From assembly GCF_045037415.1 (NCBI RefSeq), contig NZ_CP173438.1: a stretch of DNA of 64,000 nucleotides; one strand, given 5' to 3'. The translations under genes were made by a program, and so were the position numbers. Position 1 is the stretch's first letter. Each line of letters starts with the position of its first letter. This DNA is from Escherichia coli. GTDB lineage: Bacteria; Pseudomonadota; Gammaproteobacteria; Enterobacterales; Enterobacteriaceae. A model generated the notes under the pieces. The model saw only the letters and a list, made by a program, of their open reading frames with translations, searched no databases and was not told the DNA's origin. Below, one piece after another: positions 1-1,254 of this stretch.

Positions 1-319
1 ACCTGAAGAAGGTTTGTTCCAGGCAACGACACAAACAGCAGGTAAAGTGTATGTTACGCTGGGTTCTGAAGGATCGTTGTGGATTGAAGATGGTCATTTG
101 TGTCAACAGGAGGCATTTTCTGTCAATGTGGTTGATACCACTGGAGCAGGCGATGTTTTTCACGGCGCACTCGCGGTAGCGTTGGCAGAAAAAATGCCAA
201 CAAAAGAGGCTATTCGTTTTGCCAGTGCGGTTGCCGCGATGAAATGTACCCAGCCTGGCGGTCGGGCCGGCATTCCTAATCGTGAGCAAACCGAATCATT
301 TTTGTCACTTTATGCGTAA
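1..319 (+). CDS. PfkB-family carbohydrate kinase, C-terminal fragment (gene starts upstream of window)
   Basis: ORF ends at 319; translation carries the ribokinase/PfkB C-terminal TGAGD..F.GA motif region; possibly YihV-like. Confidence 0.55.
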   Translation, partial: PEEGLFQATTQTAGKVYVTLGSEGSLWIEDGHLCQQEAFSVNVVDTTGAGDVFHGALAVALAEKMPTKEAIRFASAVAAMKCTQPGGRAGIPNREQTESFLSLYA

Positions 320-358
320 AATGGTAAACATCTACCGAGGAGGGGCAAGGGAGTATTC

Positions 359-1147
359 ATGAGTATCATCGAAGTGACAGGTAATCCACGCCATGACCAA
401 CTCGTTCATCTAATCGCAGAACGCGGTTATATGAATATTGAAGAACTGGCACAACTGCTGGATGTTTCAACGCAAACCGTGCGCCGGGATATCCGAAAAC
501 TCAGTGAGCAGGGCTTGATCACCCGTCATCATGGAGGGGCCGGGCGCGTCTCCAGCGTCATGAATACCGCTTTTGAGCAACGGGAACTTTCGCTCACCGC
601 CGAGAAACGGGCGATCGCTGAGGCAGTCGCCGATTACCTTCCCGAACGCTGTACCGTCTTTATCACCATCGGTACAACCGTAGAAGCCGTTGCCAGGGCA
701 TTACTCAACCGGCGTGATTTACGCATTATCACTAATAGCCTGCGTGTGGCACAGATTCTTTATAAGAATCAGGATATTGAAGTGATGGTGCCGGGAGGCA
801 CTTTACGCGCTCATAACGGTGGGATTATCGGCCCAGGAGCCGTGGATTTTATTGAAGGCTTCCGCGCAGATTATTTAATCACCAGTATAGGTGCCATTGA
901 ACATGACGGCACCCTACTGGAATTTGATGTCAATGAAGCGTTAGTCGCGAGAACGATGATTAAACATGCGCGGAATACATTGTTAGTGGCCGATCATACG
1001 AAGTTTACCGCGTCTGCTGCCGTTTCAATTGGCAATGCACGGAATGTCAGGGCTTTTTTTACTGATGCCCCGCCTCCCAATTCTTTCTGCCAGTTGTTAA
1101 GTGAAGAGAATGTTGAACTGGTGGTTGCCGAGCAAGAAGTATCCTGA
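359..1147 (+). CDS. DeoR-family transcriptional regulator (N-terminal HTH, C-terminal sugar-phosphate binding domain)
   Basis: 262 aa ORF with RBS GAGGAGG upstream; HTH TQTVRRDIRKL and DeoR C-domain similar to GlpR; possibly YihW/CsqR-like. Confidence 0.75.
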   Translation: MSIIEVTGNPRHDQLVHLIAERGYMNIEELAQLLDVSTQTVRRDIRKLSEQGLITRHHGGAGRVSSVMNTAFEQRELSLTAEKRAIAEAVADYLPERCTVFITIGTTVEAVARALLNRRDLRIITNSLRVAQILYKNQDIEVMVPGGTLRAHNGGIIGPGAVDFIEGFRADYLITSIGAIEHDGTLLEFDVNEALVARTMIKHARNTLLVADHTKFTASAAVSIGNARNVRAFFTDAPPPNSFCQLLSEENVELVVAEQEVS

Positions 1148-1161
1148 AATTGAAACTTCGG

Positions 1162-1237
1162 AAAATCCGCTGGGAATTTCAGCGGATTTTGTTTTCCATA
1201 AGCCAAAAAAAAACCTGCCATCGCTGGCAGGTTTTTT
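1162..1237. terminator. Two intrinsic terminator hairpins; the second (1214-1231, flanked by A-run and T-run) is bidirectional for the convergent DeoR gene and bipA
   Basis: Inverted repeats aaaatccgctg..cagcggatttt and cctgccatcgctggcagg with flanking poly-A/poly-T. Confidence 0.5.
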
Positions 1238-1254
1238 ATGACTGAAAAACGAAA

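Follow-up and report, generated by a model that had tools for sequence, protein, structure and literature searches.

The 64,000-nucleotide stretch of Escherichia coli DNA analyzed here (contig NZ_CP173438.1, hereafter the window) opens with the 3′ end of a sugar kinase gene and with a DeoR-family regulator gene, both of which run toward the 3′ end of bipA (typA). Window positions 1–1203 very probably represent the right end of an eight-gene, 8.7-kb alternative yih cassette, the reversed cassette termed "short" in the literature, which sits at the site of yihLMN-ompL-yihOPQRSTUVW in K-12. The kinase–regulator pair belongs to an old, diverged alternative cassette that has been exchanged by recombination in conserved flanks, and the supposedly truncated cassette is a conserved eight-gene unit and not a stump, which goes beyond published accounts.

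The polymorphism itself is already known, and no new rearrangement is involved. "Long" (ompL-yihOPQRSTUVW) and "short" (yihTUVW) cassettes occupy the same location in opposite orientation and are scattered over the phylogeny, the short one occurring in Nissle 1917 and many pathogenic strains, and the two YihW proteins are 72% identical (Kaznadzey et al. 2025, PMC12608037). The two variants are also the strongest mutually exclusive gene clusters of the E. coli pangenome (Microb Genom 2026, PMC13427033). The short cassette is defined as four genes (yihTUVW) in PMC12608037, where the four co-directional genes after the aldolase gene are unmentioned, and the supplement of that paper yielded no expression values for these four extra genes. 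As a rearrangement the locus carries little weight, since the presence/absence polymorphism is already on record as a mark of B2-type and other lineages. The K-12 gene order is not the gene order of the species, and in pandemic extraintestinal pathogenic E. coli (ExPEC) clones, as in the probiotic Nissle 1917, the variant forms an intact unit of eight genes under selection, with a different putative entry enzyme and different transporters.

Gene content, boundaries, and configurations of the cassette

In K-12, bipA is followed by yihL, yihM, yihN, ompL-yihOPQRSTU on the opposite strand, yihV-csqR co-directional with bipA, and yihX; the order given in the first-pass annotation (yihL–yihU after bipA, then an oppositely oriented kinase–regulator pair) matches this sequence annotation. 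The DNA to the left of the window was read in strain SK1144, to which the 64 kb are 99.96–99.97% identical; window 1–1260 is 100% identical to many E. coli strains, and an O25b:H4-ST131 strain shares the cassette at 100% identity. The order in SK1144 is yihX, an aldose-1-epimerase-family gene, two major facilitator superfamily (MFS) transporter genes, a Zn-dependent alcohol dehydrogenase gene, an aldolase gene, and the "yihU" reductase gene, all on one strand, and then, on the other strand, the kinase and regulator genes running into typA. From the bipA terminator to the yihX promoter region, the variable segment measures 8,688 bp here versus 15.2 kb in K-12. In the alignment with K-12 that the first-pass annotation had proposed, identity extends from bipA through the terminator hairpin and its A9/T9 run, ends at window 1203/1204, and restarts 67 nt upstream of the yihX start codon, so that both breakpoints are sharp and intergenic; similarity to yihLMN-containing strains ends near window 1197. 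The base composition gives no sign of recent foreign origin, the cassette having 49.5% GC, equal to the K-12 segment, and the window 51.4%.

Two observations concern sequence variation at and beyond these boundaries. The yihX gene of the window-type strain, just left of the window (L001 11849–12448), has a dS of 0.25 in comparisons with K-12 and with strain WEC alike, roughly nine-fold that of bipA, and WEC carries the same alternative cassette; the yihX-side flank seems to have its own recombination history, separate from cassette type. Over the first 21 kb, the window differs from SK1144 by substitutions at 12526 and 17044 and by a single length difference, a 6-nt indel at 14646 where TAATAA is present in SK1144 and absent here.

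The four genes common to both cassettes encode proteins that align with their K-12 counterparts without gaps: the regulator is 72% identical in amino acid sequence to CsqR over 260 aa, the full-length kinase 67% to YihV, the reductase 72% to YihU, and the aldolase 67% to YihT. At the DNA level these genes are 63–67% identical, and dS is saturated. Close full-length homology, together with a position directly downstream of a sulfofructose-kinase homologue, marks the regulator as a CsqR/YihW homologue. The Zn-dependent dehydrogenase, the two MFS transporters, and the epimerase-family gene have no counterpart in the K-12 cluster. The transporters, one of the MHS (shikimate-transporter-like) type and one sugar-porter-like, show no significant similarity to YihP/YihO, and only part of the epimerase-family protein aligns with YihR, at 27% identity. 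The sulfoquinovosidase YihQ, the GPH-type transporters YihO/YihP, the YihS isomerase, and OmpL are all absent from the alternative cassette, and yihL to yihS are missing at the bipA locus of the window-type strain.

The K-12 cluster ompL-yihOPQRSTU / yihV-csqR, which encodes a sulfoglycolytic pathway of the Embden-Meyerhof-Parnas type (sulfo-EMP), was reportedly described by Denger et al. in 2014. The alternative cassette shares with it the chromosomal site, the homologous regulator, kinase, sulfofructose phosphate (SFP) aldolase, and sulfolactaldehyde (SLA) reductase with identical sulfonate pockets, and a divergent regulator-kinase / reductase-aldolase core with conserved intergenic blocks. 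The proteins, however, are only 67–72% identical and the core is inverted; and whereas K-12 has a sulfoquinovosidase, YihS, OmpL, and GPH-type YihO/P, the alternative cassette has the Zn-dependent dehydrogenase, MHS and sugar-porter-type MFS proteins, and a YphB-like epimerase-family protein.

Among 5426 complete E. coli genomes, counted where at least 80% of the query was covered, the 8.7-kb alternative cassette is present in 1325 and K-12-type yihQRS in 3886, while yihLMN is found in 4238. Window 1–1260 alone is matched in 1326 genomes, the same number as the whole cassette to within one, and the contiguous regulator–bipA junction in 623. E. coli has three configurations of this locus, not two. 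Besides the K-12 type, Nissle 1917 and WEC carry the alternative cassette with yihL-yihM-yihN between regulator and typA, and in this window, SK1144, and IHE3034 yihLMN is absent and the regulator adjoins bipA; the yihLMN-less sub-variant goes beyond published accounts. The short cassette of Nissle 1917 shares with SK1144 its orientation, its yihX-side boundary, and the accessions of the dehydrogenase, aldolase, reductase, both MFS proteins, and regulator. It differs from the window in that it keeps yihLMN and lacks the regulator hairpin, whereas the window lacks yihLMN and has the hairpin. In the yihLMN-containing strains, a sequence resembling repetitive extragenic palindromic (REP) elements lies just after the regulator terminator, and similarity is gradually lost there within some 9 nt. 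The ST131-like lineage of the window probably lost yihLMN through a further deletion, about 3.4 kb long, that extended to the bipA terminator.

Because yihLMN is absent, 107 bp separate the end of the regulator gene from the stop codon of bipA, and two terminator-like hairpins lie in tandem in this gap. The first, at 1162–1190, is followed by TTTTGTTTT and folds with −17.1 kcal/mol (z −2.6); it is deleted in Nissle 1917 but retained by E. coli WEC, Escherichia sp., Citrobacter, and Phytobacter, and in the Citrobacter version a T:A pair of the stem has become G:C by compensatory change. The second spans 1208–1237, with the core CCTGCCA-TCGC-TGGCAGG (1214–1231) flanked by A9 upstream and T6 downstream, and folds with −23.9 kcal/mol (z −6.6) on the bipA strand and −18.3 kcal/mol (z −5.3) on the plus strand. 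The first-pass annotation had read this second hairpin as a bidirectional terminator shared by the two convergent genes. It does exist and folds on both strands, and it is palindromic enough that it could act on both; but hairpin and U-run are identical in K-12 and Nissle, where yihL comes after bipA, and since the element is unchanged in K-12 without an adjacent convergent gene, it is bipA's own terminator, the regulator having its own at 1162–1190. As plus-strand transcripts meet two tandem terminators, the bipA hairpin can at most be a backup for the regulator transcript, and regulator and bipA probably do not depend on one shared hairpin. In Nissle 1917 (L026 12713–12773), the regulator hairpin is missing along with part of the REP-like element of WEC and Escherichia sp., and owing to this loss the regulator gene is directly followed by the convergent yihN. 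A 75-aa open reading frame at window 994–1221 (minus strand), which overlaps the regulator gene's 3′ end in antisense and spans both terminators, is regarded as spurious, as nothing beyond its openness supports it.

Conservation of the eight-gene unit beyond E. coli

Relatives of the Zn-dependent dehydrogenase were scanned in one genome per species. The scan returned 22 loci, 21 of which hold a close relative (56–98% identity). The order dehydrogenase-MFS-MHS-epimerase is kept in all 21 of these, and 13 loci share the full order of regulator and kinase, then reductase, aldolase, dehydrogenase, MFS, MHS, and epimerase, in Escherichia sp., Citrobacter, Phytobacter, Mixta, Erwinia, Enterobacter, Trabulsiella, Edaphovirga, Leminorella, Budvicia, and Vibrio. 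Homologues of YihS, YihQ, YihO, or YihP were not found near the dehydrogenase at the related loci, nor was a sulfoquinovose isomerase within 10 kb of it in the 21. In Citrobacter and Phytobacter the eight-gene unit sits between typA and yihX, with the regulator convergent on typA in C. sedlakii, C. amalonaticus, and Phytobacter and with yihLMN between regulator and typA in Citrobacter R56 and MGH106. Partial and rearranged forms with more distant kinases and reductases occur in Pantoea, Tenebrionibacter, Citrobacter NCU1, and three alphaproteobacteria. The YihT-like enzyme, a class I aldolase, gives way to a class II aldolase (PF01116) in six taxa (Leminorella, Budvicia, Vibrio rhodolitus, Pantoea, Tenebrionibacter, and Citrobacter NCU1). 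The same non-orthologous aldolase swap characterizes the hybrid sulfo-EMP1/EMP2 clusters with the class II SFP aldolase SqiA (Sharma et al. 2023, PMC10665668); those hybrid clusters, however, retain a sulfoquinovose isomerase (PF07221 or PF02952), whereas the dehydrogenase loci have none within 10 kb (n = 21).

The rearranged loci of Citrobacter NCU1, Tenebrionibacter, and Pantoea (L016, L019, and L020) form a group of their own: the kinase gene follows the epimerase gene, a class II aldolase comes next in L016 and L019, where the open reading frames were read, and the kinase is 43–45% identical and lacks N109 and R138. This cassette may be a functionally distinct sub-type. In the cassette flanks of Edaphovirga, Mixta, Pleomorphomonas, Roseospira, and an alphaproteobacterial metagenome-assembled genome, no C3-sulfonate degradation genes were recognizable, the high-GC open reading frame calls there being mostly noise.

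The dN/dS ratios between E. coli and cryptic Escherichia are 0.02–0.15 for all eight genes, and those versus C. sedlakii are 0.016–0.07 for the genes where dS was estimable. By this measure, all eight genes are under purifying selection. All eight are intact in the 1325 E. coli genomes at an identity of at least 95%, and in one genome an insertion sequence (IS) interrupts a cassette transporter gene.

Sulfonate pockets, a possible pathway, and competing readings

The sulfonate pockets of the K-12 enzymes comprise K27-N109-R138 in the kinase, R253 with the Schiff-base lysine K193 in the aldolase, and N174-S178 with the R123 backbone in the reductase (Sharma et al. 2021, PMC8006165). The alternative E. 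coli kinase, aldolase, and reductase have every one of these residues, including the K27/N109/R138 triad of the kinase, whose positions lie upstream of the part inside the window. In the 15–21 sequences covered by the residue check, kinase K27/N109/R138, aldolase K193/S226/S227/R253, and reductase R123/N174/S178 are invariant among the dehydrogenase-linked YihV/T/U-type orthologues of Enterobacterales and Vibrio. The reductase passes the NCBIfam equivalog cut-off for sulfolactaldehyde 3-reductase (583 versus 348 bits). Kinase and regulator give only generic, sub-threshold NCBIfam matches (ribokinase-like and GlpR-like) and carry the RefSeq names "sugar kinase" and "DeoR/GlpR family"; UniRef names the kinase "sulfofructose kinase". 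For the dehydrogenase, the transporters, and the epimerase, RefSeq, UniRef, and IMG hold generic names only.

The dehydrogenase is a canonical Zn-dependent MDR (medium-chain dehydrogenase/reductase) enzyme in which the catalytic Cys/His/Glu and the structural Cys4 zinc motifs are both present. Its best matches among solved structures are RspB (4ilk, the top match at E 2e-37), whitefly ketose reductase (1e3j), sorbitol dehydrogenase, and L-idonate 5-dehydrogenase, with E 1e-37 to 1e-24, along with several L-threonine 3-dehydrogenases. Those other than the threonine dehydrogenases convert polyols or sugar acids to ketoses and back. The cassette enzyme shares the zinc motifs of such MDR polyol/sugar-acid dehydrogenases but falls below every NCBIfam equivalog cut-off. 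Homology does not reveal its substrate, and the role and substrate given to it here are guesses. For the epimerase-family protein, the nearest structure is PDB 3nre, an aldose 1-epimerase and presumably E. coli YphB.

Upstream of both operons, long blocks of the kinase/reductase intergenic region have stayed the same in both cassette types, e.g., TTTTGA-C-TATTTGTAATT. These blocks fit the published cross-binding of both regulators: electrophoretic mobility shift assays (EMSAs) show Nissle YihW bound to the DNA between the kinase and reductase genes and its partial release with sulfoquinovose, although this release is weaker than for K-12 CsqR and the authors advise against the name CsqR (PMC12608037). 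The regulator of the window is the protein of those assays, as its accession, WP_000022287.1, is common to SK1144 and Nissle 1917.

These features suggest a scheme in which the regulator would repress two divergent operons from the conserved operator blocks between the kinase and reductase genes. The kinase would phosphorylate sulfofructose or a close stereoisomer, the aldolase would cleave the product to dihydroxyacetone phosphate (DHAP) and sulfolactaldehyde, and the reductase would yield 2,3-dihydroxypropane-1-sulfonate (DHPS), which one of the MFS transporters may export. Pathway entry would proceed via the Zn-dependent dehydrogenase and not via a YihS isomerase. As an oxidoreductase would then take the isomerase's place, the natural substrate is probably not free sulfoquinovose but some other sulfosugar or a sulfo-alditol, and such a substrate would explain the missing induction in Nissle. 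More tentatively, as a reading somewhat less likely than not, we propose that the eight widely conserved genes may make up a whole pathway for a sulfonated carbohydrate distinct from free sulfoquinovose, in which dehydrogenase, epimerase-family protein, and the two MFS transporters supply sulfofructose or a stereoisomer to the kinase-aldolase-reductase trunk; a 6-deoxy-6-sulfo-alditol or another sulfo-aldose is a candidate precursor. Full-text literature searches gave nothing relevant on sulfo-alditols, nor on sulfoquinovose or sulfofructose with a polyol, medium-chain, or Zn-dependent dehydrogenase, and neither the 2023 aldolase paper (PMC10665668) nor a 2026 review mentions such a dehydrogenase variant. 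The sulfofucose pathway was rejected as a model for the cassette, being unrelated and of the Entner-Doudoroff type (bioRxiv 2023.08.01.551581). If the proposal is true, many Citrobacter and about one-quarter of E. coli, with ST131, ST95, and Nissle 1917 among them, would use a sulfosugar niche unlike that of K-12. A substrate that is another sulfonated sugar would add a branch to sulfoglycolysis. It would also matter for the way in which sulfonates from diet or host are divided among gut E. coli lineages and in which these supply sulfite-reducing bacteria with DHPS.

Several points weigh against an active cassette of this kind or against parts of its reconstruction. In Nissle, sulfoquinovose fails to induce yihT, yihV, or yihW, and yihU appears repressed (RNA-seq and qRT-PCR), the DNA binding of YihW is weaker at 37 °C, and the authors see the short cassette as no longer taking part in sulfoquinovose catabolism (PMC12608037). 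The kinases of the Pantoea/Tenebrionibacter/Citrobacter NCU1 group and of the alphaproteobacteria lack the N109/R138 pair, and the alphaproteobacterial reductase-like protein also lacks N174/S178. The dehydrogenase is without a characterized close relative, its best NCBIfam match lying below the equivalog cut-off. The yihLMN deletion junction shows no clean microhomology when WEC, Nissle, and Escherichia sp. are compared, and its exact reconstruction failed. Finally, the absence of yihL–S outside the 64-kb window rests on the statement in PMC12608037.

The nearest competing account, close to that of PMC12608037, takes the cassette for a truncated sulfoquinovose cassette that has lost its function and is kept by chance. 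The absence of YihS, YihQ, YihO, and YihP, the unresponsiveness to sulfoquinovose and weaker binding at 37 °C just described, the IS-interrupted transporter gene of one genome, and the deleted regulator terminator of Nissle all suit such decay. It is nonetheless unlikely, given eight intact genes in 1325 genomes, dN/dS ratios of 0.02–0.15 within Escherichia and 0.016–0.07 versus Citrobacter, a gene order conserved across families and into the alphaproteobacteria, and invariant catalytic and sulfonate-binding residues alongside a dehydrogenase that keeps both zinc motifs. The same residues bear on the alternative offered in the first-pass annotation, a different and unrelated sugar-kinase/DeoR regulon beside bipA, which would serve an ordinary, non-sulfonated sugar. 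Generic database names, sub-threshold NCBIfam matches, and the behavior of the Nissle cassette on sulfoquinovose are what such a regulon would lead one to expect; yet the 67–72% ungapped identity to YihV/CsqR, the complete retention of the published sulfonate pockets in kinase, aldolase, and reductase, a reductase above the sulfolactaldehyde-reductase equivalog cut-off, and the loosening of the regulator–DNA complex by sulfoquinovose in vitro (PMC12608037) contradict it, and we consider it very improbable.

The first-pass annotation had also reasoned that, if the two proteins were YihV/YihW orthologues, this genome would carry a deletion and an inversion at the sulfoquinovose locus. The proteins are indeed homologues, at 67% and 72% identity in the comparison it had suggested, the pair is inverted, and yihL–S are missing at the locus; what does not hold is an origin in situ, whereby a K-12-type cluster lost yihL–yihS and inverted yihTUVW within this lineage, an account close to the "four-gene inversion" wording in the literature. 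The four homologous genes do keep their internal arrangement, flipped as a block relative to bipA and yihX, and both variants occupy the same site. However, saturated dS at 63–67% DNA identity stands against a bipA dS of 0.028, four cassette genes lack a K-12 counterpart, base composition betrays no recent change, and the same unit lies in the same orientation beside typA in Citrobacter sedlakii, C. amalonaticus, and Phytobacter. The divergence and the Citrobacter/Phytobacter arrangement refute inversion and deletion in situ, to which we give almost no credence. The evidence favors instead the exchange of an intact, diverged eight-gene cassette.

Features of the window

The features at the left end of the window are collected in Table 1. 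The first-pass description of a PfkB kinase fragment and a DeoR regulator convergent on bipA is borne out by the open reading frames and Pfam domains. The kinase fragment (2–319, plus strand) matches PF00294 (E 3e-24, profile positions 217–301 of 302), and the GAGD catalytic motif, including D244, lies inside the window in agreement with the GXGD signature of PfkB kinases; its DNA is identical in SK1144, where the protein is labelled "sugar kinase" (WP_000196715.1). The spacer to the regulator gene is 39 nt long (320–358) versus 33 nt in K-12. The regulator, whose DNA is 100% identical in SK1144, belongs to the DeoR family, with HTH_DeoR (PF08220, E 1.2e-23, residues 11–66) and DeoRC (PF00455, E 6.2e-46, residues 80–236) both above the gathering score. 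Its translation contains Met25, a residue singled out for CsqR in PMC10991401.

Table 1. Coordinates of features around the junction between the alternative yih cassette and bipA (window positions)
Feature	Position	Strand	Basis or remarks
yihV-like PfkB kinase gene, 3′ end	1..319	+	last 105 codons and stop; full 298-aa gene extends past left window edge
Match to published "yihV/W intergenic" EMSA amplicon	123..457		kinase 3′ end, spacer 320–358, and regulator 5′ end
DeoR-family regulator, YihW/CsqR homologue of alternative cassette	359..1147	+	262 aa
Regulator's own intrinsic-terminator-like hairpin (1162–1190) and T-rich tail	1162..1197	+	terminator scan, fold
Junction of cassette with K-12-shared DNA, right breakpoint of variable segment	1198..1204		sequence comparison
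bipA/typA intrinsic terminator	1205..1237	-	stem 1214–1220/1225–1231, A/U-pair extension, U9 tail on bipA strand
bipA/typA, conserved flank	1255..3078	-	open reading frame of 607 aa; protein 100% identical to K-12 BipA

The degenerate primers yihVW_F_uni and yihVW_R_uni match window 123–141 (plus strand) and 437–457 (minus strand), and the yihV/W fragment that they delimit is bound by Nissle YihW moderately at 30 °C and hardly at 37 °C (PMC12608037 and its supplement). The bipA gene is 99.3% identical to that of K-12 at the nucleotide level, with a dS of 0.028, and is followed in the window by glnA, glnL, and glnG.

Farther along, the window holds three other accessory segments, mapped from the SK1144 annotation in the case of the first. 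At 43798–49237 lie an IclR regulator, a 2-dehydro-3-deoxygalactonokinase, a 2-keto-3-deoxy-6-phosphogalactonate (KDPGal) aldolase, and a three-component tripartite tricarboxylate transporter, which we take to be an insert relative to K-12, where rmuC and udp presumably adjoin. The block at 51364–59560, after ysgA, comprises a cysteine hydrolase, DUF2877, fdrA, DUF1116, a carbamate kinase, an allophanate-hydrolase-related gene, a cytosine permease, and a LysR regulator; in K-12, metE presumably comes after ysgA at this point. From 59760 to the window end at 64000, a MurR/RpiR regulator, a second transketolase gene, and a ptsG-like phosphotransferase system (PTS) IIBC gene form a segment that seems to resemble the ExPEC tkt1 island.

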